From an uncultured Planctomycetaceae bacterium (GTDB lineage: Bacteria > Planctomycetota > Phycisphaerae > SM23-33): DNA of 50,169 nucleotides. The stretch spans positions 1 to 50,169 of the forward strand of contig CAYWTX010000419.1 of NCBI GenBank assembly GCA_964461295.1. Reading direction: 5' to 3'. The translations under genes and the position numbers were made by a program. Under the pieces are notes generated by a model that did no database searches, was not told where the DNA came from, and worked only from the letters and a program-made list of their open reading frames with translations. This document shows, piece by piece, positions 19,732-48,084 of the stretch. Position 1 is the first letter of the stretch. The number at the start of each line of letters is the position of its first letter.

Positions 19732-19811
19732 GCTTCCAGCTACCAGCTACCAGCCAGAGGCCGCCGGAGCTTCCCGGTTCGGCTGGAAGCTGGCCGCTGG
19801 AAGCTGGAAGC
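19732..19811. repeat. tandem-repeat-armed hairpin A (CCAGCTW heptamer arms)
   Basis: The left arm is GCTTCCAGCTACCAGCTACCAGCC (19732-19755). The right arm is GGCTGGAAGCTGGCCGCTGGAAGCTGGAAGC (19781-19811). It fills the metY-metXW spacer. Confidence 0.75.
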
Positions 19812-21112
19812 TATGTCTGCGAAGCCTTCAGCGCCCCGTCGAGGTCGGCCAGGATGTCCGCCACGTCCTCGATGCCCACGCTGAGGCGGACGTACTCGGG
19901 GCTGACGCCGGTGGAGCGCTGTTCGGCCTCGGTAAGCTGCTGGTGCGTCGTCGAGGCCGGGTGAATCACCAGCGTCCTGGCGTCGCCGATATTCGCCAGG
20001 TGGCTGGCGAGCCGGACGCTGTTGATGAACTTGATGCCGGCGGCTCGCCCGCCCCGGATGCCGAAGCCGACGATCGCCCCGGCCCCGTCGGGCAGGTACT
20101 TCTTCGCGTTGGCGTGCTGCGGGTGGTCGGGCAGGCCGGGGTAGTTCACCCACTCCACGGCCGGGTGGGCGGCGAGGTGCTCGGCCACGAGTTGGGCATT
20201 CTCGCAGTGGCGCGGCATGCGCAGGTGGAGGGTCTCGAGGCCCATCAGGAACAGGAAGGCGGCGAAGGGGCTCATGCACCCGCCGGTGTCGCGCAGCCAG
20301 TGCGTGCGGAGGTGGATGACGTACGCGATGTTGCCGATAGGCTTGAGGGCCTCGGCGAACACCATGCCGTGGTAGGCGGGATCGGGCGAGCAGAACTCCG
20401 GCCAGCGCTTGGGGTCGCTCGCCCAGGGGAAGCGGGCCGAATCGACGACAGCGCCGCCGACGTGCGTGCCATGCCCGCCGATGAACTTTGTGGTGGAGTA
20501 GACGATGATGTCGGCGCCGTGGTCGATGGGTCGCAGCAGGATGGGCGTGCACACGGTGTTGTCGACGATGAGCGGCACGCCGATGGCGTGCGCGGCGTCG
20601 GCGACGGCGCGGAAGTCGGGCACGTCGTTGCGGGGGTTGCCGATCGACTCGATGTACACGCAGCGGGTGTTGGCGTCGGCCAGTTTGGCGATCTGCTCGG
20701 GTTTGTGGGGGTTGAACAGCCGCACCTCGACGCCCAGCTTGCTCAACGTCTGCGTGAACAGCGTCCACGTGCCGCCGTACAGGCTCGTCGAGGCGATGAA
20801 GTTCTGTCCCGCGTGCGTGATGGCGAGGATGGCGGCCGTGATGGCGGCCATGCCGCTGGCGAAGGCCAGGCCGGCGGCCCCGCCGTCCAGGGCGGCCAGG
20901 CGCTTCTCGAGCACGTCATTGGTGGGGTTCATCAGGCGGCTGTAGATGTTGCCGAACTCCTTCAGTGCGAACAGGTTGGCCGCGTGATCGGTGTCGCGAA
21001 AGACGTAGCTGGTCGTGGCGTAGATGGGTACGGCTCGCGCGCCGGTGGTGGGGTCGGGCTCCTGCCCGGCGTGCAAGGCGAGGGTTCCCAAACGGGGAAT
21101 CGAGTCGCTCAT
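19811..21112 (-). CDS. metY: O-acetylhomoserine (thiol)-lyase / sulfhydrylase
   Basis: The start [20 protein letters not shown] (ATG 21112-21110) follows AAGGAG. The PLP family is identified by [10 protein letters not shown] (PLP lysine) and the C-terminal [18 protein letters not shown]. Confidence 0.9.
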
Positions 21113-21299
21113 CAGGGTCTCCTTGGGTGTCTGGTCGTTCTCTCTGTCGGATGCGTTGCCAACCGGCCCCAATGGGGCGTTCGGCAATCGGCAACGGGTT
21201 CCCACGCGGAACCGGCCACCGGAAACGCAGAACCGCAGGAATCGAAAATGGGGGCTTACCACTGTGGGTTTTGCCCAGGCCGCCGCAGCCTGCGCCACA

Positions 21300-21422
21300 T
21301 CGATCCCTTTCGGGCTGGCAGGGGCACCTTGGCCGTTCCCGGGCGTCGTGAATACTCCGCCTCCTCGAACGGTCAGGTTGCCGTGCGGTCATCGGGCCAG
21401 TACCCTCGCGCACTCTCGATGG
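21300..21422 (-). ncRNA. SAM-I (S-box) riboswitch in the metY leader
   Basis: The minus-strand sequence is AUCGAGAGUGCGCGAGGGUACUGGCCCGAUGACCGCACGGCAACC...GGUGCCCCUGCCAGCCCGAAAGGGAUCGAU. It matches the conserved S-box blocks AUCRAGAG, GAGGGA-CUGGCCCGAUGA, GGCAACC, GGUGCC, CCUGC and GAAAG-AU. P1 is AUCGA/UCGAU and P2 is GUGCG/CGCAC. P3 (CCGUUC/GAACGG) is enlarged. Confidence 0.8.
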
Positions 21423-21429
21423 CACGGGA

Positions 21430-22506: not shown

Positions 22507-23100
22507 TCATCCTGGTCTTCTGCCCGCCACGATGCGCACTTGCCTGCCCAGGGCTTCGGCCAGCATGTCGGACTTTTCGCGGGCGAAGGCGATTTCCTCG
22601 CTGCGCGCGTCCACCCCGCCGCAGGAGATGGCCAGTCGCCCGGGCGTGGGGGTGCAGCGCACGGCCGTCACCAGCGAGCGGTGCGAGCGATCCAGCCCGT
22701 CGGCGACTCGGAGGATTCCTGCCAGCAGGCGGAGTCGGCGCAGGTCGCCGCCGGGCAGGCCTTCGAGGTCGGGGTGGTGCTCGCCGGGCGGGTTCTTGCG
22801 GTGGCAGCGCGCGATCAGGGCGACCAGCCGTCGCCGCCTTGGGCGCAGCGGCAGCGTGCGATCGGCCAGGATCATCCGCATGGCCGTCTTGTGGTGGTCC
22901 TTGGCGGCCAGGGGCACGCCGATGTCGTGCAGCAGGGCGGCGCAGTGCAGCAGGAGGCGGTCGTCGGGCCCCAGCTTGTGCAGCGGGGCCAGTTGGTCGA
23001 ACAGATCCAGTGCCAGCCGGGCGTCCTGCCGCGAGTGCCCTTCGTCGTACCCGCAGGAGCGGGCGAAGGCGGCGGCGGTTTGGATGATGTCGTTGCTCAT
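22507..23100 (-). CDS. stand-alone HD-domain protein (resembles the C-terminal HD domain of Ppx/GppA phosphatases)
   Basis: The H..HD metal motif is HCAALLHDIG, followed by HHKTA and RVADGLDRSH. The protein is 197 aa. Confidence 0.75.
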   Translation of the reverse strand: MSNDIIQTAAAFARSCGYDEGHSRQDARLALDLFDQLAPLHKLGPDDRLLLHCAALLHDIGVPLAAKDHHKTAMRMILADRTLPLRPRRRRLVALIARCHRKNPPGEHHPDLEGLPGGDLRRLRLLAGILRVADGLDRSHRSLVTAVRCTPTPGRLAISCGGVDARSEEIAFAREKSDMLAEALGRQVRIVAGRRPG

Positions 23101-23122
23101 GTGCTACCAGAGGAGACAAGCT

Positions 23123-23244
23123 GGGATGAAAGGGATGGAAGGGATGGGAGGAAGTGTCGAGTGTCGGGAGATGAACGTGCCCTGTTTCCCTTCCCGACAC
23201 TTGACGCTCTTACTCTTTCTTATCCCTTTCATCGCCTTCATCCC
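23123..23244. repeat. tandem-repeat-armed hairpin B (GGGATGRAA 9-mers plus GTGTCGR 7-mers)
   Basis: The left arm is GGGATGAAAGGGATGGAAGGGATGGGAGGAAGTGTCGAGTGTCGGGAG. The right arm (23186-23244) is its imperfect reverse complement. The right arm overlaps the last ~12 codons of the CHAD gene. Confidence 0.7.
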
Positions 23245-24223
23245 TGCTGATCTCTCTCGTCTGCAACCGAGAAACCAGCATGCCTGCCAGGCGATCCCAG
23301 AAGCCTTCGTGCCTCAGGCGTGCCCAGAGCGTGATCAGTTCGCCGAACCGCTGCTGCCGCTGGCAGCGCCGCAACTGCTGGAAGTGCCTGATCCCCGGGC
23401 GCAGACGCGAGAACGGCGCCGCACGGCCATAGAACGCCCGCGCTCGCTCGCGTTCCTCCTCTTCGAAGGAGTCGAGTTGTTCGTCCCACACGTCGCAGTC
23501 GTGGATGTCGCCCAGCAGCGTCTGGAGTTCCTTGACGGCCTCGACCGGCGCGGCCATGGCGCCGTCGTACAGCGGCTGGGAGATTTCCACGGTGTAGCGG
23601 AGGCGTTTGGCGGCGATGCGCATCTGGTGGTGGGAGTCCTTCGCCTTCTCGTCGGCCAGGCAATCCTGCCAGGCCAGCAGTTCCTCGACGCGGCGGAGGA
23701 TTTCGCGTTCGGCGCGGAGGAACGCGGCGGGCGCCTGGATCACGACGCCGCGGCTGCGGAGGGTCTGGCAGGCGTGTTCGGTCGCGGCGGCGATCTCGCT
23801 CAGGACGCGGGCGCGTTCGAGGCGGTCGATGGCGAGGATGACGTCCTGCTGGAAGGCCTTTCGGCGCTGGCGGAGCCGCAGAAGCAGGCGCTGCACGCCG
23901 GGGTGGAGGCTCTTATCCCTAGGGGCCGCCAGGGCTTTCTGGGCCGCGGCCACGGACTCGATCTGCACGTCGGTGTCGCGCGCGGGGCCGAGGCTGCGCC
24001 GCAGGCGGCGCATCGACTTGCGCCAGGGCCTGGCCTGTTCGGCCGGGAAGCAGTCGCCGAACATTTCGAGGGCGGCGCGGAAGCGCCGCGAGGCGACGCG
24101 GGCCTGGTGGACGGGTTCGTTCTGGCGGGCCCTGCGGGCCCCGCGCAGGTGCTCGGAGATGATCCGCACCTGCTCAGACAGGAAATCCGCCCCCAGCAGC
24201 AGCCAACTTTCGTCGCAGGTCAT
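23210..24223 (-). CDS. CHAD-domain protein
   Basis: CHAD-type helical repeats are present (VHQARVASRRFRAALEMF, HQMRIAAKRLRYTVE). The start MTCDESW (ATG 24223-24221) follows AAGGA and lies downstream of an extended -10-like TGATACAAT (minus strand, about 24261-24253). Confidence 0.8.
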   Translation of the reverse strand: MTCDESWLLLGADFLSEQVRIISEHLRGARRARQNEPVHQARVASRRFRAALEMFGDCFPAEQARPWRKSMRRLRRSLGPARDTDVQIESVAAAQKALAAPRDKSLHPGVQRLLLRLRQRRKAFQQDVILAIDRLERARVLSEIAAATEHACQTLRSRGVVIQAPAAFLRAEREILRRVEELLAWQDCLADEKAKDSHHQMRIAAKRLRYTVEISQPLYDGAMAAPVEAVKELQTLLGDIHDCDVWDEQLDSFEEEERERARAFYGRAAPFSRLRPGIRHFQQLRRCQRQQRFGELITLWARLRHEGFWDRLAGMLVSRLQTREISRDEGDERDKKE

Positions 24224-24461: not shown

Positions 24462-25994
24462 ATGTCGGGTAGCCCATCGCTTCGCCTGGCGGCGGGTCTG
24501 CTGTCGCTGGCGGCGTTTTGCACGGCCGCGGCGGCTCAGGCCAAGCCGAAGATCAACATATGGGGCGCGCCCCCGCAGGAGAAGCCGCATTTCACCAAGG
24601 CGGCCGAGACGGCGGCGCCGTTGCCCCTGCCCGTCACGCCGCAGCGGCGGAGCGAGAAGAAGCGTCCGCCGGCTCCGCCCAAGCTCATCGCCAACCTCGC
24701 CAACTTCAGCGTGGAAGGCTGGCAGGGATCGCCCGGCGCCGTTGACACGCTGCTTACCACCGCCCAGGAGAACGTCAAGCTCTGGTACGGCTGGGAGCAT
24801 CTGGACATCCGGGACATGGTCCGCAAGCACACGGCGGGCGTGCGGACCAAGACGCCCATCCTGTACCTGTGCGCCTATTACCCGCTGAAGTTCACGCCCG
24901 ACCAGCGGGACGCGCTCAGGGACTACGTGATGGACGGCGGCACGATGCTGATCAACTGCTGCGGACAGAAGGACGCGTACGAGTCCGCCCAGGCCGAACT
25001 GAAGGCGATGTTCGCCCATCGCCCGCTGCGGATGCTGCCGCCGGATCACCCGCTGTACTGTTCCAACTACAAGATCGAGCGCGTCGCCCTGCCGTCGCTG
25101 GGGCCGGCGGCGCCCTTCACGGCTGCCGCGGAAGACCTTGCCGGCGTTCCGGGGGGTCAGGTCTCGGGGCTTCAGCGTCCGCGCGTCCACGCGATCAGCA
25201 TCGGCACGCGAGCGGCCGTGCTGGTGAGCATGGAGGACCTCGCCTGCGGCTGGAACAAGTGGGACAACGTCAAGGTGCTCCGCTACGCCCCGGGCGATTC
25301 GAACAAGCTGGGCATCAACATCATGACGTACGTGACGGCCGAGCTGCGCCTGGCGGAATACCTGTCTCGGACGCGGGAGATTCAGGGTCCCAGCGTGCGG
25401 CCGCGGCAGCAGTTCGTGCTGGCGCAGATCATTCACGAGGGGAACTGGGACGCCAACCCGTCGGGGATTCCGTATTTCCTGAAGGAACTGGGTTCGAACA
25501 CGTCGATCGCGGTGAAGTTCACGAGGGTGCGGTTGGAGATGAAGAACCCCAACCTGTTCACGTACCCATTGTTGTATATGACAGGCACGTGGGACCCGGC
25601 CCTGCGCGACGACGAGGTCGCCCTGCTGCGGAGGCACCTCAAGGAGGGCGGCACGCTGATCGCCGACGCCGCCAGCGGCCTGGCCGAGTTCGACGGCGGC
25701 TTCCGCGAGTTGGTGCGGAAGCTGTTCCCCGACGCCAGGCTGGAGAAGCTGCCCAAGGAACACGCGGTGTTCAGCAGCTTCCACAACATCGACAAGCTCA
25801 ACGCCAACCACCTTTCCGAGCCGATCGAGCCGGTGATCCTGGCGGTGATGCACGACAATCGTCCGGCGATTCTGTACTCGCCCATCGGGATGGGCGACGG
25901 GTGGGCGCAGAGGCACAGCGCGTTCGCGCGGTGCTACGCCCAGGAGGACGCGGTGAAACTGGGGACCAACCTCGTGGTGTTTGCGATGCAGTAG
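24462..25994 (+). CDS. secreted protein with two DUF4159-like (GATase1-like) domains
   Basis: A signal peptide is present. The duplicated pattern is PILYLCAYYPLKFTPDQRDALRDYVMDGGTMLI / PLLYMTGTWDPALRDDEVALLRRHLKEGGTLIAD. The gene sits at the head of the MoxR cluster. Confidence 0.8.
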   Translation: MSGSPSLRLAAGLLSLAAFCTAAAAQAKPKINIWGAPPQEKPHFTKAAETAAPLPLPVTPQRRSEKKRPPAPPKLIANLANFSVEGWQGSPGAVDTLLTTAQENVKLWYGWEHLDIRDMVRKHTAGVRTKTPILYLCAYYPLKFTPDQRDALRDYVMDGGTMLINCCGQKDAYESAQAELKAMFAHRPLRMLPPDHPLYCSNYKIERVALPSLGPAAPFTAAAEDLAGVPGGQVSGLQRPRVHAISIGTRAAVLVSMEDLACGWNKWDNVKVLRYAPGDSNKLGINIMTYVTAELRLAEYLSRTREIQGPSVRPRQQFVLAQIIHEGNWDANPSGIPYFLKELGSNTSIAVKFTRVRLEMKNPNLFTYPLLYMTGTWDPALRDDEVALLRRHLKEGGTLIADAASGLAEFDGGFRELVRKLFPDARLEKLPKEHAVFSSFHNIDKLNANHLSEPIEPVILAVMHDNRPAILYSPIGMGDGWAQRHSAFARCYAQEDAVKLGTNLVVFAMQ

Positions 25995-26077
25995 CAGGCT
26001 GCCAGCCGCCAGCTTCCAGCAAGAAGGAGCCGAAGAGTTCTTTGCTGAAAGCTGGTCGCTGGAAGCTGGAAGCTGGG
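25995..26077. repeat. tandem-repeat-armed hairpin C (CCAGCTW heptamers)
   Basis: CAGCAGGCTGCCAGCCGCCAGCTTCCAGC ... GCTGGTCGCTGGAAGCTGGAAGCTGGG. It fills the DUF4159-moxR spacer. Confidence 0.75.
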
Positions 26078-26085
26078 AGTTGAAC

Positions 26086-27111
<1,026 letters not shown>

Positions 27112-27115
27112 GAAG

Positions 27116-27226
27116 AACACGGACACACGGACGAACACGGACTGACACGGACGAATATGGACAAAGGCCGCGACCCGATGTCCGTGTCAGTCTGTGTCAG
27201 TCCGTGTTTGTCCGGGTGTCCGTGTT
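27116..27226. repeat. tandem-repeat-armed hairpin D (CACGGACKAA about 10-mers)
   Basis: AACACGGACACACGGACGAACACGGACTGACACGGACGAATATGGAC ... GTCCGTGTCAGTCTGTGTCAGTCCGTGTTTGTCCGGGTGTCCGTGTT. It fills the moxR-DUF58 spacer. Confidence 0.75.
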
Positions 27227-28183: not shown

Positions 28184-28402
28184 GCCGGCTTCCAGCGGCC
28201 AGCTTCCAGCAAGAGAAAGAGAAGGTGACCCGGTTCGTAGTACCGCCCTTGGGGCCAGGGCCGTAAGGCGGAATCCCGGCACGCCTTCGACGAGACGGGA
28301 GCCGCCTTACGGCCCTGGCCCCAAGGGCGGAACTACAAACGAAATCGGCCTCCCTCCTGCTGGAAGCTGGAAGCTGGTAGCTGGAAGCTGGAAGCTGGAA
28401 GC
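28184..28402. repeat. tandem-repeat-armed hairpin E (CCAGCTW heptamers) carrying a nested 39-nt-arm palindrome (28233-28271 / 28302-28340)
   Basis: The outer arms are GCCGGCTTCCAGCGGCCAGCTTCCAGC / (GCTGGAA)n. The inner arms share a 29-nt perfect complement, CCGCCCTTGGGGCCAGGGCCGTAAGGCGG. Confidence 0.8.
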
Positions 28403-39050: not shown

Positions 39051-40900
39051 TGTGCATGGTTGCCTCGGCGGCTTTAGCCGCCGACGAGGGGAACGGCCCG
39101 CGGCCGAGCGGGCGGGGAAAGGTTCCCAAGCTGGAGGAACTGCTCGCGGCGAGCGTCGCGCCGGCGCCCACGCCGGCGGCGCCGGACAAGGCGATGAACC
39201 TGGTGTACAACGGCACGTTCGAGCAGGTGGACGCCAACAGCGGCGTGCCGGTCGGCTGGCGCGGCGTGCCGGTTTTTCCCGGCGGCAAGAACGTGCTGGT
39301 GGTGGACGGCGGGCCGAAGCGAGGCAAGGTGCTGCTGCTCCACGGCGACGCCGGCCGCATGGGCGCCCCGGGCGTGATGTGCATGCAGACGGCCGAGATT
39401 CCCGTCAAGGCCAACACGCGCTACCGTTGCACGGGGTGGACGAAGTCGGCCGGGCCGACCTTCATCATCTTCGTGAAGGGTTTCGGGCTGGTAAAGCACA
39501 ACGTCGGCGACCGCACGAGTGTGTACGAGGAAGTGTACATGATGAAGAAGGAGATCAGCGGGCCGGTGACCGGTCGGGGCGTTCGCGACTGGGAGCCGTT
39601 CAACCTGGACTTCGAGGTGCGCCCGCTACGGGTGTTCTCTGACTTCAACACCAAGGTCGAGTTCGTCCGCGTGAAGATCTTCGCGTACTGGCCGCCGGGG
39701 ACGTGCTGGGCCGACGACATCCGGTTCTTCGAGGTCGGGCCGGTGCCGGCCGACCAGCGCGTCTCGGAAGAGGCGATGACGCACGCGGGGATCAAGCCGC
39801 GGCTGTCGGCGCCTGACCCCAACGAGGGGAAGTTCGACGAGGAGCAGGCGTACGTCGACGCGGGCAACGCGTGGAAGACCGGCGAGTACGTGAAGTGCCA
39901 CTTCCTGTCGAGCAGGCTTATCGCGGCCGCGCCGGGCACGGGGCTGTACCGCCTGCTGCTGGCGCGTTCGGCGACGATGCTGGGCAAGTGGGACGACGCG
40001 GAGGCGCAGGCCCAGTGGGTGCTGGAGGCGCAGGACAAGGGCGCGGCGGGGCGCGAGGTCGAGGGGTGGATGTTCGACTGGGCCGCCCTGGTGCACGCGG
40101 AGGTGGTGTTGCGGACGGGCGACCGCGCGCAGGGGTTGGCGCTGGTGGAGGCGCTCGTCGCGAAGACGGATTCGCCGCACGTGAAGGCAGCGGCGCGGAA
40201 GGTGCTGGCGCAGGCGCGGGAGGGAGACAAGCGCCCCGAAGCAGGCTCGGGCGGAGGGTCTTCGGCGAATTCGGCGCCGAGTGCGTCGATGCCCGCGACG
40301 CGACCTGTTCCGCAACCCGCGCCCGCGCCCGCGACGGGACCGGCGGAGAATTTCAACGACAAGGCATGGCATTCGCTGGGGCGAGGGGGCGTGTGGAAGA
40401 TCGTCGCCGATGGCGAGATTCACCAGCTCGACGGGGACAAGCCGTGGAAGAACAACGGCTTCAACCGCAAGATCGAACAGTCCGGGCCGATGGCGTGGGA
40501 GTACGAGATCCTCGTCGCCGACGGCTCGTGCGGGGCGGGGATGTACGTGATGGCCGACGACGAACAGGCCAACGACCGCGGGACAAGCTACCTGCTGTGG
40601 TACAAGCACGCCAAGGCCGAGGCCGGCAAACCGGCCTCGGGGCAGATGGTGGTCGGCAAGTTCGTGAAGAACAAGCGCGTGAAGGAGTTCCGCGTGACGT
40701 TCGACGTGCCGGTCAAGTTCGACGAGTGGGCGAGGCTGCGGTACGAGTTCGATCCGGCCAGCGGCAGGTTCACGCTGTACTGCCAGGGGCAGAAGGTTGG
40801 CGATGCCGTCGACGCCGAGCCGATTAAGGCCGGCAGCCACGTCTCGCTGCACACCTGCCAGACGGCCTGCAAGTGGCGCAACCTGCGGGTGCTGAAGTGA
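38948..40900 (+). CDS. secreted protein with N-terminal CBM-like beta-sandwich, central TPR-like region and C-terminal DUF1080/LamG-like domain
   Basis: The hydrophobic signal core is SLFVALCMVASAALAA. NLVYNGTFEQVD...GWRG is CBM4/9-like. The C-terminal WKIVADGEIHQLD...FRVTFDVPVKFDEW...WRNLRVLK resembles 3-keto-disaccharide-hydrolase (DUF1080) folds. The start codons at 38948 and 38957 lie inside hairpin G, so the start is uncertain. Confidence 0.7.
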   Translation: MTRMKTRIARTRNTDVFLRDTRFFSRVIRSLFVALCMVASAALAADEGNGPRPSGRGKVPKLEELLAASVAPAPTPAAPDKAMNLVYNGTFEQVDANSGVPVGWRGVPVFPGGKNVLVVDGGPKRGKVLLLHGDAGRMGAPGVMCMQTAEIPVKANTRYRCTGWTKSAGPTFIIFVKGFGLVKHNVGDRTSVYEEVYMMKKEISGPVTGRGVRDWEPFNLDFEVRPLRVFSDFNTKVEFVRVKIFAYWPPGTCWADDIRFFEVGPVPADQRVSEEAMTHAGIKPRLSAPDPNEGKFDEEQAYVDAGNAWKTGEYVKCHFLSSRLIAAAPGTGLYRLLLARSATMLGKWDDAEAQAQWVLEAQDKGAAGREVEGWMFDWAALVHAEVVLRTGDRAQGLALVEALVAKTDSPHVKAAARKVLAQAREGDKRPEAGSGGGSSANSAPSASMPATRPVPQPAPAPATGPAENFNDKAWHSLGRGGVWKIVADGEIHQLDGDKPWKNNGFNRKIEQSGPMAWEYEILVADGSCGAGMYVMADDEQANDRGTSYLLWYKHAKAEAGKPASGQMVVGKFVKNKRVKEFRVTFDVPVKFDEWARLRYEFDPASGRFTLYCQGQKVGDAVDAEPIKAGSHVSLHTCQTACKWRNLRVLK

Positions 40901-41029
40901 GCTACCAGCTACCAGCTTCCAGCTACCAGCAAGAGGGAGGCCCCAAGGGCGGTACTACGAACGCGCCCGCCTTCTGTCTTGCTGTAGCTGGTAGCTGGTA
41001 GCTGGCAGCAGGCAGCAGGTAGCTGGCAG
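40901..41029. repeat. tandem-repeat-armed hairpin F (CCAGCTW heptamers) with a partial copy of the hairpin-E inner element in its loop
   Basis: GCTACCAGCTACCAGCTTCCAGCTACCAGC ... GCTGTAGCTGGTAGCTGGTAGCTGGCAGCAGGCAGCAGGTAGCTGGCAG. The loop segment GGCCCCAAGGGCGGTACTACGAAC matches 28316-28340 at about 22/25. Confidence 0.75.
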
Positions 41030-41087
41030 TTGATTTGCTCTTGCTTCCGCGGCGGGCATTGTGTTTTCTGTCCGTTGAGGAGCAGCC

Positions 41088-41873
41088 ATGGCCACACCGA
41101 AAGCGTTAGTGTTGCGGGCCGCGGGCACCAATTGCGACCGCGAGACGGAGTTCGCTCTCCAGCAGGCCGGCTTCGAAGTCCAGCGCGTCCACGTCTTCCG
41201 TTTCATGGAAGAGCCGGCCCGCCTGCGCGACTACCAGTTCCTCGTCGTGCCCGGCGGGTTCAGCTACGGCGACGACGTGGCGGCCGGTAAGATCCTCGCC
41301 AACCAGATGCTGTACCGGTTGTCGGAGCCGTTGAACGAGTTCGTGGCGGCGGGCAAGCTGGTGCTGGGGGTGTGCAACGGCTTCCAGGTGCTGATCAAGA
41401 GCGGCCTGCTGCCGTGGGGTCGCGTGGACGCCGCGGAGGCCAACCGCGACGCGACGCTGGCGTGGAACGACAGGGGGCGGTTCGAGGACATGTGGATCCA
41501 CCTGCGGGCCGACAGCGACAAATGCGTGTTTCTGCCCAAGGGCGAGGTGATCGACCTGCCGATCGCCCACGGTGAGGGCAAGTTCGTGCCGCGCGACGCC
41601 GCCATGCTTGACCGGCTACGCTCGGGCGACCAGGTCGCTCTCCGCTACGTGGACGCAGCCGGCAACACCGGCCAGCCCTACCCCATCAACCCCAACGGCA
41701 GCGTGGACGACGTGGCCGCCCTGTGCGACCCCACTGGCCGCGTGATGGGCCTCATGCCGCACCCCGAGCGGTTCGTGGACATCACGCACCATCCGCAGTG
41801 GACCCGCGGGCGGATCGAGCGAGCGGATGGCCGGTTGTTCTTCCAGCGGGCGATGGAGTACCTGGCGAAGTGA
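41088..41873 (+). CDS. purQ: phosphoribosylformylglycinamidine synthase I (glutaminase subunit)
   Basis: ATG follows GAGGAG. Motifs are AGTNCDRE, VVPGGFSYGDD, GVCNGFQ (catalytic Cys) and MPHPER. Confidence 0.9.
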   Translation: MATPKALVLRAAGTNCDRETEFALQQAGFEVQRVHVFRFMEEPARLRDYQFLVVPGGFSYGDDVAAGKILANQMLYRLSEPLNEFVAAGKLVLGVCNGFQVLIKSGLLPWGRVDAAEANRDATLAWNDRGRFEDMWIHLRADSDKCVFLPKGEVIDLPIAHGEGKFVPRDAAMLDRLRSGDQVALRYVDAAGNTGQPYPINPNGSVDDVAALCDPTGRVMGLMPHPERFVDITHHPQWTRGRIERADGRLFFQRAMEYLAK

Positions 41874-41933: not shown

Positions 41934-42260
41934 ATGGAGTACGAGTTCGGCTGGACTGAATGGAACCTGGAGCACGCAGCCGGACATGGCGTGGCCCCCG
42001 AGGACGCTGAGTTTGTTGTGGACAATGCCCGGAGCCTCCAGCCCAAGCGCGGCGGCGAAGCGAAGTGGTTTGTACAAGGGCAGGACCTCGGCGGCCGCTG
42101 TCTGCAAGTGATCTGCGTGGTCAGAGACGACGAGGTACTTGCGATTCGCAGTCGCCTTCTGGGCGAGGCCGACATTGCCGCCGCTACTTCTTCAGCTGCT
42201 GCCAGTCGGCCACGTCGCAGCGGGCGGCCCAATCGTCGTACTGCCCGGAAAGTCGCTTGA
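41934..42260 (+). CDS. BrnT-like (DUF497) toxin homologue, orphan; 3' part probably read-through
   Basis: MEYEFGWTEWNLEHAAGHGVAPEDAEFVV...LQVICVVRDDEVLAIRSR resembles BrnT. The ORF tail overlaps the convergent sulfatase 3' end by 77 nt. No BrnA-like ORF follows. Confidence 0.55.
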   Translation: MEYEFGWTEWNLEHAAGHGVAPEDAEFVVDNARSLQPKRGGEAKWFVQGQDLGGRCLQVICVVRDDEVLAIRSRLLGEADIAAATSSAAASRPRRSGRPNRRTARKVA

Positions 42261-43806
42261 CGCCGGCGGGGTCTTCCTCGGCCAGGTCGGACAGTTCGGT
42301 GCGGTCGGCGGCGAGGTCGTGGAGTTCCCAGCGGCCTGGGTATCGCGACACGAGTTTCATATCGCCGTCGCGGACGGCGCGGTTGCCTTCGTGTTCCCAG
42401 AAGATCGGGCGTCGGCGCCGCCACGTCTGCCCCTGCACCGCCGGGAGGAAGCTTTCGCCCTCGAGTGGAACGGGGCCGGTCGCCTTCGCACCAGCGAGAT
42501 CGACGATCGTGGGCGCCAGATCGACCACGTGAACGGGGGAGTGACACAGCGTGCCGGAAGCCCATGGCCCGCCGGCCGTGGGCTTGGAGGACGCGGGCGC
42601 GACAATCAGCGGCGTGGAGATGCCGCCCTCGTGCACCCAGCTCTTGTACAGGCGGAACGGCGTGTTCGACGCGTTGGCCCACGGCAGGTCGTAGCTCATG
42701 AACGTGTCGGCCGGGCCGGGCCGCAGGCCGGGGATGTTGCCGATCCGCATGGGCCGGCCGTCGCGGGTGGGGTAGTCGTATCGCATTGGTTCGGGGCGGG
42801 CGGAGTCCTCGGCGAGGAACTCGGCGCACCCGCCGTTGTCGGACAGGAACATCACCAGCGTGTTGTCGGCTGCGCCGGTGCGTTCCAGCGCGGCCAGCAC
42901 GCGGCCGATGCCTTGGTCCATGCGGTCGACCTGTGCCGCGTAGACGGCCATGCGCAGATCCTCCCAGTCGCGCCGCGCGGCGGGCAAGTCGGCCCAGGCG
43001 GGCGCCTTGGCGTCGCGCGGCGACGTCGGCCAGCGCGGGTCGAGGATTCCCTCGGCCGTGAGCTTTTCGCGCCGCCGGCCGCGAAGTTCGTCCCATCCGC
43101 AGCGGTAGGCGCGCTCGTAGCGGGCGATGTCTTCCTCGAGCGCGTGCAGCGGCCAGTGCGGGGCCGTGTAGGCGAGGTAGAGGAAGAACGGGTCGCGTTG
43201 GGGCGCGGCGTTCGCCTCCACGATCATGCTCACCGCGTGGTCGGTGATCGCATCGGTGAGATAGAAGGCCTCGCCCTCGGGCGTGACGATCGACTCGTTG
43301 CACGCCAGATAGGGCGTGTTGAAGTAGCTGCCGGCCCCGCCGAGCATACCCCAGAACCGCTCGAAGCCGCGCCGCGTGGGCAGCGGGTGGCGCTGGTCGC
43401 CGAGGCAGCGCCACGAGCGGCTGTCCCGGCCGACGTAACTGCCGCCCACGTGCCACTTGCCGCTCATCAGGGAGCGATACCCGGCTGGGCGGAGCATTTC
43501 GGCGATGGTGGGGCGGTCGGCGCGGAGGAAGCCCTGGTAGGCGGGTCCGACGCCGCGGTCGTTGACCATGTGGCCCACGCCGGCCTGGTGGGGATACAGG
43601 CCGGTGAGCAGGCTGGCCCGCGTGGGGCAGCAGCGGGCGCAGTTGTACGCCTGGGTGAACCGCAGGCCGCGGCGCGCCAGGCCGTCGAGGTTCGGCGTGC
43701 GAATCTCGCCGCCGTAGCAGCCGATGTCCGAGAAGCCCATGTCGTCGGCGAGGACCAGAACGATGTTGGGGCCTGGGGCCGCCGGCCGCCCGTCGCTCCT
43801 CGTCAT
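42184..43806 (-). CDS. sulfatase (formylglycine-dependent arylsulfatase family), no signal peptide
   Basis: Motifs are NIVLVLADDMGFSD and the FGly motif CCPTRASLLTG (C-x-P-x-R), with conserved downstream blocks (SGKWHVG, FLSDNGG). I chose the ATG at 43806-43804 because it overlaps the upstream stop as ATGA. Other in-frame ATGs are at 43815 and 43824. Confidence 0.9.
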   Translation of the reverse strand: MTRSDGRPAAPGPNIVLVLADDMGFSDIGCYGGEIRTPNLDGLARRGLRFTQAYNCARCCPTRASLLTGLYPHQAGVGHMVNDRGVGPAYQGFLRADRPTIAEMLRPAGYRSLMSGKWHVGGSYVGRDSRSWRCLGDQRHPLPTRRGFERFWGMLGGAGSYFNTPYLACNESIVTPEGEAFYLTDAITDHAVSMIVEANAAPQRDPFFLYLAYTAPHWPLHALEEDIARYERAYRCGWDELRGRRREKLTAEGILDPRWPTSPRDAKAPAWADLPAARRDWEDLRMAVYAAQVDRMDQGIGRVLAALERTGAADNTLVMFLSDNGGCAEFLAEDSARPEPMRYDYPTRDGRPMRIGNIPGLRPGPADTFMSYDLPWANASNTPFRLYKSWVHEGGISTPLIVAPASSKPTAGGPWASGTLCHSPVHVVDLAPTIVDLAGAKATGPVPLEGESFLPAVQGQTWRRRRPIFWEHEGNRAVRDGDMKLVSRYPGRWELHDLAADRTELSDLAEEDPAGVKRLSGQYDDWAARCDVADWQQLKK

Positions 43807-44966
43807 TCCACGCATCCTGCGCATCCTGCCATTGCCTTCTCATAGATTCGATATTTCTTGTACAACTCCGGCTCCAGGCTGCCGGTGATCGAGCGGTTGG
43901 ACATCCTGTTGTCTTCCAGCACCCAGGACGCCTCGCCTCGCCGGATGCCGCGGGCCAGACCGTTGATCACCGTTTCGGTGAACAGCAGCGCCGTGATGCC
44001 CAGGCTGCGGTACCGTTCCAGGGCCGCGATGCCGAAGATGCGCATTTCGTCAACGCGCCTCATCGCGAGCAGGAACCGCAGCCAGCCCAGCGGCAGCAGG
44101 CGGCCGCCCGCGACGGCCAGCCCGCGGTTGACGTTCACGATCGACATCGCCGCCCCGGCCGGGGCGCCGTCCACCTCGGCCAGCAGGATCAGTTTCGGAT
44201 CGACCACGCGCCGCAGGTTGCGGGCCGACTCGATGGCTTCCTCGGGCGTCAGGGGCACGTAGCCCCAGTTGTCCCGCCGCGCCTCCTCGAACACCGACAG
44301 CAGCTTCAGCACGTCGGCCTCGAAGTTCGACATGTCCAGGCAGCGGATTGTCAACTCCGGGTGTCGCCGCTTCGCCGCGGCCGAGATGCGCACCAGGCGC
44401 TCGTGCGCCTCGGTGCCGACTTCCAGGCGTTCGGCCCGCAGCAGGTAGGCGAAGAGATCCTTCGCCTTGGCAAACCCGATCGATTCGAGCATGGGCGGGT
44501 ACTCGGGCGGGTTGTAGGGCATGAGAGCCATCGGCGGCGAGTCGAACCCCTCGATCAACAGCCCGCACTCGGAGTTCATCGACGGGTTCACCGGCCCGCG
44601 AATCTTCGTCAGCCCGCGAGCGGCGAGCCAGTGTTCAGCCGCCGCGATCGCGCCTGCGCCCGCGTCCGCGTCGTCGCGCCGGCACTCGAAGAACCCGAAG
44701 AACCCCACGCCGTCGCGGTAGCGCTCGGCGTGCGCACGATTGTGGATGGCTGCCACGCGCGCAACGGCTCGTCCATCGCGCCGTGCAACGAAGAGCGCCG
44801 TCTCGGCGTGCCGAGAGAACGCGGTGCGGCCGCTGAAGATCCCTTGCTGCTCGCCTCGCAGGGGCGGCACCCAATTGGCGTCGCCGCGGTGGAGCCGGTA
44901 CGGAAGCTCCAGGAACTCCCGCCGCGACCGTCGATCGTCGGCCTGCCTCACCGCCAGCGCGCTCAT
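43803..44966 (-). CDS. large (about 387 aa) GNAT-like N-acyltransferase family protein
   Basis: The frame is coding-like throughout (REFLELPYRLHRGDANWVPPL...GPVNPSMNSECGLLIEGF...). The ATG at 44966-44964 overlaps the AOS stop as ATGA. The family assignment is from overall resemblance, not a verified domain hit. Confidence 0.7.
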   Translation of the reverse strand: MSALAVRQADDRRSRREFLELPYRLHRGDANWVPPLRGEQQGIFSGRTAFSRHAETALFVARRDGRAVARVAAIHNRAHAERYRDGVGFFGFFECRRDDADAGAGAIAAAEHWLAARGLTKIRGPVNPSMNSECGLLIEGFDSPPMALMPYNPPEYPPMLESIGFAKAKDLFAYLLRAERLEVGTEAHERLVRISAAAKRRHPELTIRCLDMSNFEADVLKLLSVFEEARRDNWGYVPLTPEEAIESARNLRRVVDPKLILLAEVDGAPAGAAMSIVNVNRGLAVAGGRLLPLGWLRFLLAMRRVDEMRIFGIAALERYRSLGITALLFTETVINGLARGIRRGEASWVLEDNRMSNRSITGSLEPELYKKYRIYEKAMAGCAGCVE

Positions 44967-46195
44967 GAGGCGGCCGGCACCCGCGGCTTCTTCGAGCACG
45001 GGTATTTCCGGCGCAGCTCGCCCATGGCGTCCAGAAGCGTCCGCAGGTCTTCGCGCGAATGGCTGGCCGTCGGGATCACCCGCAGGATGGACGTGCCGAT
45101 CGGCACGGCCGGGTAGAGCACGGCACTGGCGAAGATGTCGTACTCCTCGTCCAGTTCGGCGCTGATGTGCACGGCGTCGGTGCCGTTGCCGCGTATCGGC
45201 GTGATGGGCGTCTGCGTCTTGCCGATGTCATAGCCCATCGCCTTCAACTCGCCCTGGAGGAATCGCGTGTTCTCCCACAGCCGCGTGCGGCGGTCGCCTT
45301 CCGTTCGCACGATCCTCAGCGCTTCCAGCGTGGCGGCGGCGACGGCTCCGGGCATCGCCTTGGTGAACAGGATCGTCGGCGCGTTGTAGCGCAGGTGGTT
45401 GATGACGACGTCGTCGCCGGCGACGAAGCCGCCGGTGGTGGCCATCGCCTTGCTGCACGTGCCCAGGTGCAGGTCGATGCGGTCCTCCACTCCCTGCAGT
45501 TCGGCCGTGCCGCGGCCGTTGGCGCCGCACACGCCGGTGCCGTGGGCGTCGTCGACGATGAGGCGGGCGCCGTACTTCTCGCACAGGTCGCACAGGTCCG
45601 GCAGCGGGGCGGTGTCGCCCTGCATGGAGTACACGCCGTCGACCACGACCATGCGGGCGCGGTTGGCCGGCGTCTCCATGAGGATCGCCTCGAGGTCCTC
45701 CACGTCGTTGTGCTGGAAGAACCGCATGCGGGCGCCCGAGATGCGGGCCCCGCACACCAGCGACGCATGCGCGTACCGGTCCAGCAGGATCAGGTCGCGA
45801 GGGCCCGCCAGGGCCGCGATGGCGCCCATCATGGCGAAGGCGCCGTTGCTGAACACCAGCGCCTTCTCCGTTCGCTTGAAATCGGCGAGTTGACGCTCCA
45901 ACTCCTCGTGCAACTCGGTGTTGCCCGTCAGCGGGCGGGCGCCCATCGGGGCCGATATGCCGTAGCGGCTGGCGATGTCCGAGGCCGCCTTGATCACCCG
46001 CCTGTCGCTGGCCAGGCCGAGGTAGTCGTTGGTGCTGAACTGGAGCATGCGGCGCCCGTCGACGTCCATCCAGGGCCCGGCATTGTCCAAGGGCATCCTG
46101 CGATAGAGGACGCCCTCCGCCTTCTGGCGGTGCTCGCCCTCGATGATGGGCGAGTGATCTCGGAACTTGACGCACTTATCGAAGATGTCAGGCAT
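44963..46195 (-). CDS. alpha-oxoamine synthase family PLP enzyme (BioF / KBL / serine-palmitoyltransferase-like)
   Basis: Motifs are FSTNDYLGL, VFSNGAFA, DGVYSMQGD, DDAHGTG and the PLP lysine in GTCSKAM. The start MPDIFDKC is ATG 46195-46193. Confidence 0.9.
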   Translation of the reverse strand: MPDIFDKCVKFRDHSPIIEGEHRQKAEGVLYRRMPLDNAGPWMDVDGRRMLQFSTNDYLGLASDRRVIKAASDIASRYGISAPMGARPLTGNTELHEELERQLADFKRTEKALVFSNGAFAMMGAIAALAGPRDLILLDRYAHASLVCGARISGARMRFFQHNDVEDLEAILMETPANRARMVVVDGVYSMQGDTAPLPDLCDLCEKYGARLIVDDAHGTGVCGANGRGTAELQGVEDRIDLHLGTCSKAMATTGGFVAGDDVVINHLRYNAPTILFTKAMPGAVAAATLEALRIVRTEGDRRTRLWENTRFLQGELKAMGYDIGKTQTPITPIRGNGTDAVHISAELDEEYDIFASAVLYPAVPIGTSILRVIPTASHSREDLRTLLDAMGELRRKYPCSKKPRVPAAS

Positions 46196-46461
46196 AGGCG
46201 ATCTTTCGCCAGCAAGGCGGCGACGCCGGCACCTTTCCGGTTCTCCGAACCACGCCGCAGCCGCCAGCGGCGACCGGGAGTAGACCACTTTTCACTGTTA
46301 AAGGCAAGCGGGCAATGGGTATCTTCCGGGCGAGCCGAAGACACTCAGCCGCGCCGGACGCGGAGAAGAGCGGCTTTGAGACCTTCTCCTCTGCGCCCTG
46401 CCAACGCGACCTGGAGTTCGCGTGCTCGGCGGTGGAGCTCGTCCTGGCCCGCTGACGAACC

Positions 46462-48033
46462 ATGGGACTGCTTGCTTCTACCTTTGACGCCTACGCCGCA
46501 TGGAGATTGCGGCAGTTCGATGCCGCGTGCCGCGACCCGGCCGCCACGCAACGCAACGTCCTGGCCGAGCTTCTGCGCCGCGCCGCCGGCACCGAGTGGG
46601 GCCGCCGCTTCGACTTCGCCGACATCGGCTCGCCCGAGCAGTTCCGCGCTCGCGTGCCGGTGACGCCCTACGCCGAACAGTCCACCCACTGGCTGGGCTC
46701 CTGCCAGGGCCGGCGCGATCTCTGCTGGCCCGGGCACGTGCGCTACTTCGCCATCTCCTCGGGCACCACGGCCGGCGAGAAGCTGCTCCCCGTGACGGCT
46801 GACGCGATCCGCTCGAACCTGCGGGCGGGGGGGCTGTTGGCGTCGATTCTGGCCCGCCGCGGCGGGGCCAAGGCGCTGCTGGGGGGCAAGTTCCTCTACC
46901 TGGGCGGCTCGACGACGCTGCGCGAGAACGGCCGCTGCCTCTATGGCGACGCGTCCGGCATCGTCACGCGCCACATCCCGAAGATCGCCCGCCGGCGCCA
47001 CCTGCCCGAAAGCGATATCGCCGCCCTGGGCAACTGGGAGCAGAAGATCGACCGGATCGTGGAGCGGTATCTGGCTGCCGACGTCGCCGCCGTGAGCGCC
47101 TGCCCGTCGTGGGCGTGCATGTTGTTCCGGCGAATGCGCGCCGCCGCCGGGGGCGCCGGGAAGCCCATCGGCGAACTCTGGCCTAAGCTCGCCTTCTTCG
47201 TCAGCTACGGCATGGCCTTCGGACCCTACCGCACCGCGTTCCAGCAATACGTCGGCCGGCCGCTGCACTACGTCGACACGTACTCCTCGTCGGAGGGCGG
47301 CATGACCGCCATCCAGGCCGAGGAAGGCGGGCCGATGCGGCTGATCATCGATAACGGCGTGTTCTTCGAATTCGTGCCCGCCAACGGGGCCGCCGCCGCC
47401 GCGCCGCGCCTGCACATCGGCGAGGTCGAGCCGGGGGTCGACTACTCGGTGCTGCTGTCCACCAACGGCGGCATCTGGGCCTACCCGTTGGGCGACGTGG
47501 TGCGGTTCGTCTCGCTTCGCCCGCCGCGGATCGTCTTCGGGGGCCGCACGCAGGTCCAACTCAGCGCCTTCGGCGAGCACGTGTCGCTGGATATGGTCGA
47601 GAACGCCGTGGCGTCCGCCTGCGAGAAGACCGGCGCCGTCGTGGCCGACTACACCGTGGCCCCGCGATACCCCTCGCCCGAACAACCCGTGCCCGCGCAC
47701 TGCTGGGTGATCGAGTTCGATCACCCCCCGGCCGACGCAAGCGCGTTCATGGCCGAGGTGGACGCGAAGCTCCGCTCCTTCAGCGAGGACTACGACGTCC
47801 ACCGCACCGATAACTACGGCTTGCAGCCGCCGGTGCTCATTCCGGCCGCGATGGGCACGTTCCACGAGTGGATGAAACGCAAGGGCAAACTCGGCGGACA
47901 GCACAAGGTCCCGCGCGTGGCCCGCACGGCCGAGATGCTCGAGGAGTTGATGGCGATCAGTCAGGCGGCGCCATCGGCGGTGCGAAAGTGGAAAGGGACT
48001 ACGGAGATTGAAGGAAGGGATTGTGGGGGTTGA
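46462..48033 (+). CDS. GH3-family (auxin-responsive-promoter-like) acyl-acid amido synthetase homologue
   Basis: Motifs are FAISSGTTAGEKLLPVT, YGDASGIV, YSSSEG and FEFVP, with a C-terminal HKVPRV typical of bacterial GH3 proteins. Confidence 0.85.
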   Translation: MGLLASTFDAYAAWRLRQFDAACRDPAATQRNVLAELLRRAAGTEWGRRFDFADIGSPEQFRARVPVTPYAEQSTHWLGSCQGRRDLCWPGHVRYFAISSGTTAGEKLLPVTADAIRSNLRAGGLLASILARRGGAKALLGGKFLYLGGSTTLRENGRCLYGDASGIVTRHIPKIARRRHLPESDIAALGNWEQKIDRIVERYLAADVAAVSACPSWACMLFRRMRAAAGGAGKPIGELWPKLAFFVSYGMAFGPYRTAFQQYVGRPLHYVDTYSSSEGGMTAIQAEEGGPMRLIIDNGVFFEFVPANGAAAAAPRLHIGEVEPGVDYSVLLSTNGGIWAYPLGDVVRFVSLRPPRIVFGGRTQVQLSAFGEHVSLDMVENAVASACEKTGAVVADYTVAPRYPSPEQPVPAHCWVIEFDHPPADASAFMAEVDAKLRSFSEDYDVHRTDNYGLQPPVLIPAAMGTFHEWMKRKGKLGGQHKVPRVARTAEMLEELMAISQAAPSAVRKWKGTTEIEGRDCGG

Positions 48034-48084
48034 GAGATACCCGGGAACCAATCCCGCCAATCCCGTCAATTCCTTTCCTTCTTC
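48004..48084. repeat. tandem-repeat-armed hairpin H (GGGATTG / CAATCCCGY units)
   Basis: GAGATTGAAGGAAGGGATTGTGGGGGTTG (in the last codons of the GH3 gene) pairs imperfectly with CAATCCCGCCAATCCCGTCAATTCCTTTCCTTCTTC (48049-48084). Confidence 0.6.

Follow-up and report, generated by a model that had tools for sequence, protein, structure and literature searches.

What are the long hairpins that fill the spacers at eight gene junctions of an uncultured Planctomycetaceae bacterium (Phycisphaerae, SM23-33)? The window analysed here is the whole stretch of 50,169 nucleotides (nt) of contig CAYWTX010000419.1 (assembly GCA_964461295.1); its G+C content is 67.6 %, and its best protein matches are metagenome-assembled genomes (MAGs) labelled Phycisphaerae or Planctomycetota. 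A preliminary description had reported at these junctions (J1 to J8) imperfect inverted repeats whose arms are themselves short tandem repeats. Considering their folding, their distribution among relatives and the composition of their units, we lean towards reading them as dispersed short-tandem-repeat arrays of the heptameric long simple sequence repeat (LSSR) and short tandemly repeated repetitive (STRR) class, arranged in inverted pairs and exerting a passive effect on the mRNA like that of repetitive extragenic palindromic (REP) sequences and bacterial interspersed mosaic elements (BIMEs). The elements are given below with their RNA minimum free energies (MFE, in kcal/mol) and z-scores against 200 dinucleotide shuffles per locus.

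J1, 19732-19811: CCAGCTW / WAGCTGG heptamer arms, 3.3 and 4.4 copies; metY to metX-metW junction; MFE -52.7, z -6.3.
J2, 23123-23244: GGGATGRAA 9-nt units; CHAD to HD-domain gene, both on the minus strand; MFE -73.1, z -8.2.
J3, 25995-26077: heptamer arms of the CCAGCTW unit, 3.3 and 4.7 copies; DUF4159 stop (25992-25994) to MoxR start (26086); MFE -40.4, z -2.75, with 2 of 200 shuffles equally good.
J4, 27116-27226: CACGGACKAA units of about 10 nt, 4.3 and 4.8 copies; arms of 48 nt, 85 % complementary; MoxR stop (27109-27111) to DUF58 start (27240); MFE -84.5, z -14.0.
J5, 28184-28402: composite, with outer CCAGCKK / GCTGGWA heptamer arms, 3.3 and 6.4 copies; DUF58 stop (28179-28181) to BatA-like start (28407); MFE -152.9, z -14.8.
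J5 inner core, 28233-28340: separate palindrome within the heptamer arms; 39-nt arms, 95 % complementary.
J6, 38921-39050: degenerate CACGAAT-like units; after the PA14/TPR stop (38911-38913); MFE -63.1, z -7.4.
J7, 40901-41029: heptamer arms of the CCAGCTW unit, 4.4 and 6.1 copies; directly after the stop at 40898-40900; MFE -84.4, z -8.4.
REP-like unit in the J7 loop, 40939-40958, minus strand: GGCCCCAAGGGCGGTACTAC on the plus strand, which is GTAGTACCGCCCTTGGGGCC on the minus strand.
J8, 48004-48084: CAATCCCGY / GGGATTG 9-nt units, a weaker hairpin; between the convergent genes GH3 and PALP; MFE -33.9, z -3.25.

A single dominant stem-loop was predicted at all eight loci, with MFE values from -33.9 to -152.9 kcal/mol. 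In the comparison with shuffled controls, which the preliminary description had set as a test, every locus folded far better than its controls (z from -2.75 in J3 and -3.25 in J8 to -14.8 in J5), and the reported anatomy of eight long intercistronic hairpins is thereby borne out. Tandem Repeats Finder (TRF) detected arrays on both arms of five loci, with period 7 in J1, J3, J5 and J7 and period 10 in J4, while period 9 was found on one arm only of J2 and of J8 (in J8 the 3' arm) and the signal at J6 was weak, amounting to no more than 2 x 9 nt and 2 x 21 nt. The statement that each arm is a tandem array is thus fully true at five loci and degenerate at three (J2, J6 and J8). A strict, TRF-based census of the window yielded 25 arrays and 5 inverted same-unit pairs, against means of 3.7 arrays and 0.02 inverted pairs in 100 dinucleotide shuffles, and an inverted-repeat scan of the window revealed no tandem-armed hairpin beyond the eight. 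The other strong inverted repeats of the window, at 5819-6091 and 49828-50028, are of a different kind.

Two contigs from the JGI metagenome 3300037485 match the window, L001 over 16.7 kb including J2 to J6 and L427 over 9.2 kb including J1, each with one mismatch and no gaps, and they reproduce J1 to J6 base for base. Since these contigs are near-identical to the window, an assembly artefact is unlikely for J1 to J6, which this comparison covers; J7 and J8 lie outside the matching contigs. Elements of this kind are likely to be hotspots of assembly breaks and of copy-number variation in MAGs.

In J1 and J3 to J7, the stem follows the upstream stop codon at a distance of 0-7 nt; in J2 and J8 it includes that codon. 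The flanking genes are co-oriented at seven of the eight junctions. In J1, the metY stop (19811-19813, minus strand) overlaps the first stem base, and metX-metW starts at 19712 or 19691. While the positions of the eight elements stand, their description as spacers does not hold throughout. The 5' arm of J2 (coding strand), adjoining CHAD, encodes the C-terminal tail RDEGDERDKKE and the stop at 23210-23212, and the 5' arm of J8 encodes the last 9 codons of GH3 and its stop at 48031-48033. J5 is composite, and its core is a REPIN-like doublet (a hairpin of two REP sequences) of two inverted GTAG-tagged REP-like units (GTAGTACCGCCCTTGGGGCCAGGGCCGTAAGGCGG ... CTAC). At J6, the called start at 39056 leaves just 'MVASAALA' of a signal peptide, and because the signal-peptide h-region of a 70 % orthologue (P0122) aligns upstream of it, the true start of this gene is probably the ATG at 38948 or 38957, inside the 5' arm of the hairpin. 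About 30 codons, including the signal-peptide n-region, would then come from the hairpin arms; an ATT start is also possible. The elements can therefore mislead gene callers, as at the J6 start codon. Besides, TAG is the stop codon before four of the eight hairpins versus 3 of 20 other genes of the window, and orthologues without an element mostly end in TGA. A change of CAGCT to TAGCT in the outermost unit may have restored the stop, although these numbers are too small to be sure and are only suggestive.

The evidence that bears most directly on the nature of the elements comes from the same junctions in other genomes. Relatives were found through DUF58, the protein encoded at 39056-40900 and MetXW, and junctions J1 to J7 were compared (identities in brackets).

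J1: L428 (77 %), 47 nt with a direct 9-mer x3; L429 (70 %), 10 nt.
J2: L002 (83 %), 22-nt spacer, with the CHAD tail formed by a coding GGGATGCAC x3 array (DARDARDA) that has no inverted partner.
J3: L002, CCAGCTW hairpin at 5308-5436, 129 nt, MFE -86.5, with another loop; L004 (70 %), ordinary 42 nt; L006 (68 %), 1 nt.
J4: L002 and L006, 4-nt overlap; L004, 29 nt.
J5: L002 and L004, 4-nt ATGA overlap; L006, 91 nt with direct GGGCTCA x4 and CCGGACT x3.
J6: L248 (70 %), 81 nt with direct AATGCYR x11 running into the start codon; L249 (52 %), 5 nt.
J7: L248, another gene after 11 nt; L249, 110 nt with small hairpins of an ordinary kind.

Among the seven junctions compared, a shared element was found at J3 only, and with the closest relative L002 only, which is the outcome of the comparison of orthologous junctions that had been proposed. 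Across the insertions the ends of the flanking proteins are retained to the residue, as at J4 in comparison with L002 and L006. At J5, the flanks read ...RRGKTRK (stop) / MTLLSPILLL in L002 and ...RRGKMRK (stop) / MTLLSPILLL in the window, and at the DNA level AAATGACG of L002 corresponds to AAG TAG (225 nt) ATGACA of the window. The ATGA at the downstream start is common at starts throughout the window and is thus not diagnostic of former overlaps. The orthologous junctions show the elements to be lineage-specific additions at junctions that originally overlapped or were very short, and they are best read as recently acquired repeat DNA instead of conserved regulators. The hugging of stop and start codons is then to be expected, because the element makes up the whole spacer.

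Arrays without an inverted partner are also present in these relatives. Direct-only arrays occur at the same or neighbouring junctions (L003 6076-6205, L006 9551-9641, L248 1005-1085 and L428 4434-4480), and a 7-nt period is dominant there also, so that the head-to-tail short units of the LSSR and STRR class are found. In L428, a GGATTGY heptamer array (ATTGCGGATTGTGGATTGCGGATT) lies at 2950-3000, between the SAM-riboswitch region and metY, at a junction colonised in one lineage only.

The internal structure of the arrays points to several ways in which they may arise. In L003, unit variants occur in blocks (AATGTCA x3, then AATGCCA x3, then AATGCWG), the mark left by duplication in place or by slippage. 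Arm copy numbers are unequal (3.3 versus 6.4 in J5, 4.4 versus 6.1 in J7) and also differ between orthologues. J2 combines an older coding 9-mer array, already present in the common ancestor with L002, with a newer inverted copy in the spacer. By eye, the arms of J4 seem to have matching irregular unit spacing and a CTG variant at mirrored positions, which suggests that they arose by whole-arm inverted duplication.

Some elements of the window are related to each other. The loops of J5 and J7 share a 37-nt local alignment with 24 consecutive identities around the GTAG-tagged REP-like unit GTAGTACCGCCCTTGGGGCC (core GTAGTACCGCCC), which is present as a doublet in J5 and as a singlet in opposite orientation in J7; these are the 3 REP units of the window, and the other six loci are without a GTAG-tagged core. 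The 9-mer CCCGGTTCG is common to J1 and J5 and lies at the point of J5 where the REP begins, being followed in J1 by G, not GTAG. Based on these alignments, the CCAGCTW elements of the window are paralogues and did not arise independently. The GCTGGWA unit occurs at 4 window loci, in J3 of L002 and at 2 sites of a phage fragment (L258), AATGCYR in L003, L248 and L258, GGGATGNNN in the window, L002 and L258, and CCGGAMY in L006 and L258. Since GCTGGWA, AATGCYR, GGGATGNNN and CCGGAMY recur at non-orthologous junctions of relatives and in phage, they constitute a small recurring unit alphabet. J2, J4, J6 and J8 have private units without a paralogue in the fetched sequences, the GGGATG family excepted.

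The phage fragment L258 (IMGVR_UViG_3300013133_003705) has a G+C content of 71 % and encodes a terminase, a ClpP-like prohead protease, a scaffold and a capsid protein; it has no synteny with the window. Its spacers at 5180-5357, 6275-6344 and 10565-10640 contain direct arrays (CCGGAAC x10 and GCTGGWA x8; GCTGGWA x5; GGATGCACG x3 and AATGCYC x5), with different units concatenated just upstream of start codons. A wider genome scan for three GCTGGWA units returned at least 120 stretches from many phyla. Well-formed CCAGCNN-armed hairpins numbered 16 among the matches listed; 0-13 nt separate the upstream stop from their first unit, and 2-11 nt their last unit from the start. In Acidobacteriota MAGs, such hairpins lie between rplF and rplR, rplR and rpsE, and atpA and atpG, and after rpsD, and a further one is found about 150 nt downstream of a partial atpG-like open reading frame (ORF). 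Often a TAG stop is continuous with the first unit (TAGCT), and GCTGA often closes the last one, 2-4 nt before the ATG.

L119, 483-558, 932-1058 and 7307-7383: CCAGCNN-armed hairpins of Acidobacteriota.
L017, 6618-6734 and 7610-7723: CCAGCNN-armed hairpins of Acidobacteriota.

Inverted pairs are not restricted to this unit, as 61 inverted array pairs of many units were detected in the fetched loci of other phyla, for example ACGTGCG x22 with x24 and GGGAATC x6 with x6. The former, at 4668-5174 of L092 (Acidobacteriota MAG CAVUDT010000003.1), has ACGTGCG x22 and CGCACGT x24 with 196 nt between them and a predicted RNA MFE of -360 kcal/mol. Scrambled heptamers of the same composition gave at least 120, 19 and 14 stretches in viral contigs versus 24 for GCTGGWA. 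Because these controls are as frequent, it is the architecture that is general, not the GCTGGWA unit, and we rejected the spread of CCAGCTW across phyla as evidence of horizontal transfer, scrambled heptamer arrays being as common or commoner. A metagenome scan with the arm-loop junction 15-mer AGCTWCCAGCAAGAG was likewise discarded, this query being too short: true arrays were found at 2 of the 120 loci listed, and the rest were chance matches. Contigs found through the scrambled control GGCTGWA (L294, L319, L320, L322, L350, L366, L367, L380 and L388 of IMG/VR) carry the motif (A/T)TCACA-GGGATGAAGGGGATGAAAGGGAT, several per contig, which belongs to the J2 9-mer family and which GGCTGAA arrays adjoin. 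The pattern suggests that some phages have a dense repeat system.

Searches for a known identity of the elements gave little. Rfam 15 had no family match for them, with spurious miRNA-precursor matches far below threshold at J2, J4 and J5, and a literature search with the unit strings returned primer sequences only. No consistent start codon follows the conserved junction CCAGCAAGAGG, so it does not lend itself to a reading as a small ORF or a Shine-Dalgarno sequence.

Among known systems, the inverted GGGAATC arrays of Xanthomonas come nearest (PMC4692102), and the view that the combination belongs to no described family can therefore not be kept, as inverted heptamer-array pairs near stop codons had been reported there. 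The GGGAATC / GGGGA(C/T)T heptamers of Xanthomonas and Nostoc (Rehm et al. 2015) occur in 2-26 copies, about 90 % of them intergenic, and in Xanthomonas they are found mostly between co-oriented genes, up to about 50 nt away from the stop or across the end of the ORF, with 70-75 convergent ('tandemly inverted') array pairs per genome that are able to form a stem-loop (PMC4692102). Their length and sequence vary between close relatives, and they are mostly transcribed, with no regulatory role found (PMC4692102). Like these pairs, all eight loci of the window consist of two convergent same-unit arrays that form a stem-loop, with the stop codon 0-7 nt before or inside the stem and co-oriented genes at seven of eight, and the J2 (GGGATGRAA) and J8 (GGGATTG) units resemble the G-tract units. 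On the other hand, CCAGCTW, CACGGACKAA and CACGAAT are without G-tracts, and four or more GGG tracts are present in J2 only, J8 having two GGG and one GGGGG run. As most units are without G-tracts, G-quadruplexes are not the common denominator. The window also differs in having periods of 9 and 10 nt, in the inversion of every locus, in the REP-like core of two of them and in the Phycisphaerae MAG host.

The likeness to STRR and REP/BIME sequences, pointed out in the preliminary description, is apt. Cyanobacterial STRR heptanucleotides, as reportedly described by Mazel et al. in 1990, form a small unit alphabet in direct tandem arrays at many intergenic sites. The elements share the dispersed small heptamer alphabet, and different units are concatenated in L258, L006 and L003; they differ in forming hairpin pairs in place of direct arrays, and in taxon and units. 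The MIRU (mycobacterial interspersed repetitive unit) repeats of Supply et al. (1997) are said to be intercistronic operon repeats of variable copy number that abut or overlap stop and start codons; their units are reportedly 40-100 bp long, in direct tandem and with small ORFs, not hairpins of 7-10-nt units. Long stems between cistrons of one transcript are known from the RNase III hairpins of the phage T7 early mRNA and from the Rhodobacter pufBA|pufL hairpins, whose sequences are unique and conserved and for which a role in processing or stabilisation has been demonstrated. They are a model for how such a stem could act, whereas for the elements here a role of this kind is a proposal. REP, BIME and REPIN sequences are also intercistronic imperfect palindromes, transcribed in operons, of lineage-specific abundance and acting as passive mRNA stabilisers or modulators (PMC3116915, PMC3733652). 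In their GTAG...CTAC tag and in their layout, a doublet in J5 and a singlet in J7, the two cores agree with REP and REPIN sequences. REP stems are, however, unique sequences of 20-40 bp and not tandem arrays, the heptamer arms fall outside described REP families, and no RAYT (REP-associated tyrosine transposase) was seen in the window. MacGregor (2015) described direct TAACTGA heptamers in Beggiatoaceae, Cyanobacteria and Bacteroidetes; almost every array is intergenic and stops a few nt short of a start codon (PMC4679880). This one unit is present in unrelated phyla with no evident transfer mechanism, and a role in translation has been suggested (PMC4679880). Unlike the elements here, these repeats are nearly all direct (one inverted among 170 sets) and consist of a single unit containing stop codons (PMC4679880). 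An excess of heptamers was reported in 2007, in a wider class together with STRR, as cited in PMC4692102 and PMC4679880.

From these comparisons we infer how the elements may originate and what function, if any, they may have. Arrays would be seeded locally or copied from another locus, would grow and shrink through replication slippage, and would be turned into palindromes by inverted duplication (template switching). They would survive only where both reading frames and downstream translation stay preserved. In this Phycisphaerae lineage, such arrays have spread to operon stop/start junctions, usually as two inverted arrays, with the whole spacer forming one long stem-loop. Transcribed within the operon, such elements would form stems of -34 to -153 kcal/mol, each serving as a passive, REP/BIME-like barrier and landmark for RNases (3' exonucleases, RNase III). 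The stem would hide the downstream initiation region until a ribosome terminating at its base melts it, by which the two genes may stay coupled. In J3, J4 and J5, the upstream stop lies at the 5' stem base and the downstream start 4-13 nt past the 3' base. A terminating ribosome that opens the stem and is delivered near the next start would explain why palindromic inserts are tolerated between overlap-coupled genes.

Several observations weigh against this reading. All eight loci of the window are hairpins and the arrays of relatives are mostly direct, for which the model has no explanation, and slippage alone does not account for the same few units at many loci. The J3 unit is kept on both arms in L002 (DUF58 83 % identical), which could reflect constraint instead of concerted evolution. 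Long palindromes are normally unstable, and their persistence may need selection. The consequences at the RNA level are all inference, and the strand-bias test considered below has low power (n = 8, n = 14), the pooled gene direction in it being a crude one (a criterion based on G+C at third codon positions, GC3).

The preliminary description had offered roles in mRNA processing, stability or subunit stoichiometry, according to which the elements would be dedicated cis-acting RNAs, selected for processing of the mRNA, stability of the upstream segment or the expression ratio of neighbouring genes. In favour of this, the stems, near-perfect over 25-70 bp, have the length that RNase III is known to cleave, the elements are placed exactly between stop and start codons of co-transcribed genes, the J3 element is kept in L002, and pure junk would not be expected to share its unit families with a phage structural module. 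In Xanthomonas, moreover, starts or ends of transcripts are more frequent at repeats of this type than at control sites (PMC4692102). If the RNA were selected, G-U pairs would be expected to favour the sense strand. In the window, however, the sense strand folds more stably at 5 loci and less stably at 3; for the 14 co-directional hairpins that were pooled, the figures are 8 and 6, and the mean difference between the strands is 0. The transcribed strand thus has no excess stability, and the same junctions of relatives 68-83 % identical are without elements, their genes overlapping or abutting; together these two results argue against a conserved dedicated RNA function and leave the offered roles unsupported. 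The diversity of units and loops between loci makes such a role unlikely as well, direct arrays that are unable to form a stem are frequent in relatives and phage, and there is no Rfam match. We regard dedicated RNA elements as improbable; most likely, the elements are no dedicated, conserved regulator. The possibility that they are terminators or attenuators without a U-tract ('I-shaped'), as proposed for high-GC bacteria, would suit the very stable GC-rich stems straight after stop codons, J8 between convergent genes, and J7 at a likely operon end, where the purQ-like gene (GATase_5) begins 58 nt on, at 41088, and a small stem intervenes:

41040-41066, plus strand: small terminator-like stem CTTGCTTCCGCGGCGGG with a T-rich tail, 11 nt past J7.

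The operon may end at this stem instead of at the big J7 hairpin. None of the elements has a U-tract, as already stated in the preliminary description: in scans of the window, no terminator-like stem with a T-run coincided with any element, and the counts were below shuffle expectation. The operons that contain J1, J3, J4 and J5 have overlapping genes in relatives, and the CCAGCNN hairpins lie inside the obligately co-transcribed rplF-rplR-rpsE and atpA-atpG genes of Acidobacteriota, where efficient termination would be lethal, so that these cannot be efficient terminators. We therefore consider termination very improbable.

The suggestion of non-autonomous mobile elements, similar to MITEs (miniature inverted-repeat transposable elements) or REPINs, fared better in part. 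The arrays would be terminal inverted repeats or stem extensions, and the transposase would lie elsewhere, for example a RAYT acting on the GTAG core. The CCAGCTW unit is present at four loci within 21 kb, J5 and J7 have a common GTAG-type REP unit with adjacent loop in opposite orientations, J1 resembles the J5/J7 loop minus the REP (CCCGGTTCG, then G not GTAG), the same families recur at non-orthologous junctions in relatives and in phage, and several Acidobacteriota copies end in TCAGCT...AGCTGA; Planctomycetes also have known GTAG REPs (PMC3733652). However, none of the 16 CCAGCNN hairpins has a target-site duplication or sharp termini, the outer units decaying gradually, and the 50-kb window has no transposase-like protein. 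Arm copy numbers are unequal and the Acidobacteriota loops unrelated, J2, J4, J6 and J8 have private units without a paralogue (GGGATG family excepted), and the spread of GCTGGWA is no evidence of transfer given the scrambled heptamers in viral contigs. Mobility of this kind is thus doubtful as an account of the elements. Arrays of binding sites for a single-strand protein with a register of about 7 nt, for instance a CsrA-type protein that binds GGA or a cold-shock-domain protein, of which one occupies 6-7 nt, with the hairpin as a folded/coated switch, would account for the 7-nt periodicity. By eye and without statistics, GGA is present on one strand in 6 of 9 unit families (GCTGGAA, GGGATGRAA, CACGGAC, CCGGAAC, CCGGACT and CGGGATTG), CspB heptamer binding has been discussed for TAACTGA repeats (PMC4679880), and direct arrays stand immediately upstream of start codons in phage L258. 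This explanation is hardly probable in view of the great unit diversity within and between genomes, the burial of the motifs in the stem when the hairpin forms, the occurrence of arrays in both orientations relative to transcription, and the fact that a candidate protein was not found.

Within the preferred reading of inverted repeat arrays with a passive effect, the inverted-pair form may not be incidental, and may be what allows a large insert between genes that once overlapped and were coupled in translation. Tentatively, and with low expectation, we propose that the hairpin hands the terminating ribosome over the closed stem to the next start, in a bacterial termination-reinitiation 'shunt'. 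Parallels are caulimovirus shunting and the bypassing in T4 gene 60. If true, the downstream initiation region would be closed to free ribosomes, and the hairpins would be a widespread natural device that keeps coupling over 100-200-nt inserts, including in ribosomal-protein and ATP-synthase operons. Less likely still is an enzyme-driven, unit-specific process that deposits one small unit alphabet in host and phage DNA.

The gene order of the window, assigned by Pfam, provides the operon context of the elements:

17874-19712, minus strand: metX-metW fusion.
19811-21298, minus strand: metY (Cys_Met_Meta_PP).
21294-21425, minus strand: SAM (S-adenosylmethionine) riboswitch RF00162, directly upstream of metY; 50 bits versus a gathering score of 44.4.
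21459-21430, minus strand: sigma-70-like promoter-like site, 11/12, TTGACA-18-TATCAT, just before the SAM riboswitch.
22507-23100, minus strand: HD.
23210-24223, minus strand: CHAD.
24462-25994, plus strand: DUF4159.
26086-27111, plus strand: MoxR.
27240-28181, plus strand: DUF58.
28407-30680, plus strand: BatA-like.
30733-33120, plus strand: GATase1-like.
33147-36416, plus strand: gene without a Pfam family.
36502-38913, plus strand: PA14/TPR.
39056 (called start) to 40900, plus strand: probable secreted protein.
41088-41873, plus strand: purQ-like (GATase_5).
42184-43824, minus strand: sulfatase.
44963-46288, minus strand: aminotransferase.
46462-48033, plus strand: GH3.
48242-49150, minus strand: PALP, with the gene end at 48242.

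The riboswitch and the promoter-like site upstream of metY place J1 within a riboswitch-controlled metY / metX-metW operon, and the earlier observation that the elements hug stop and start codons inside co-transcribed strings is confirmed. The window also contains dnaA (7299-8726, minus strand). The inverted repeats of a different kind comprise, in 5740-6100, two overlapping pairs (5819-5845/5950-5976 and 5962-5987/6066-6091) in the gap after the pyruvate:ferredoxin oxidoreductase genes, which reaches into the start of a trmB-like ORF (5978-6826). At 49828-50028, near the contig end, two Acido-Lenti-1-like hairpins (RF01687; 36.7 and 35.6 bits, just below the gathering score of 37) are inverted around a third palindrome (49896-49959), forming a 200-nt composite inverted repeat. 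Its TAGTAC.GCCC..GGG stretch is, by eye, like the REP-like core of J5 and J7.

Bacterial heptamer repeats have been known since about 1990 and their excess since 2007. What is new here is the phylum and the units of the inverted heptamer-type pairs, the kind being already known from Xanthomonas and cyanobacteria. To this are added the insertion into 4-nt gene overlaps with both proteins kept exactly, the change from array to palindrome at J2, the REP-like cores in the J5 and J7 loops, the same design inside essential operons of another phylum, and the unit families in phage. Since ribosomal-protein operons, ATP-synthase operons and a phage structural module all tolerate this design, it can neither terminate transcription efficiently nor block downstream translation. 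Overall, the window constitutes an unusually clean natural experiment, with one operon present with and without the elements across relatives, and it raises testable ideas on hairpin-bridged translational coupling, RNase III processing and the conversion of arrays into palindromes.

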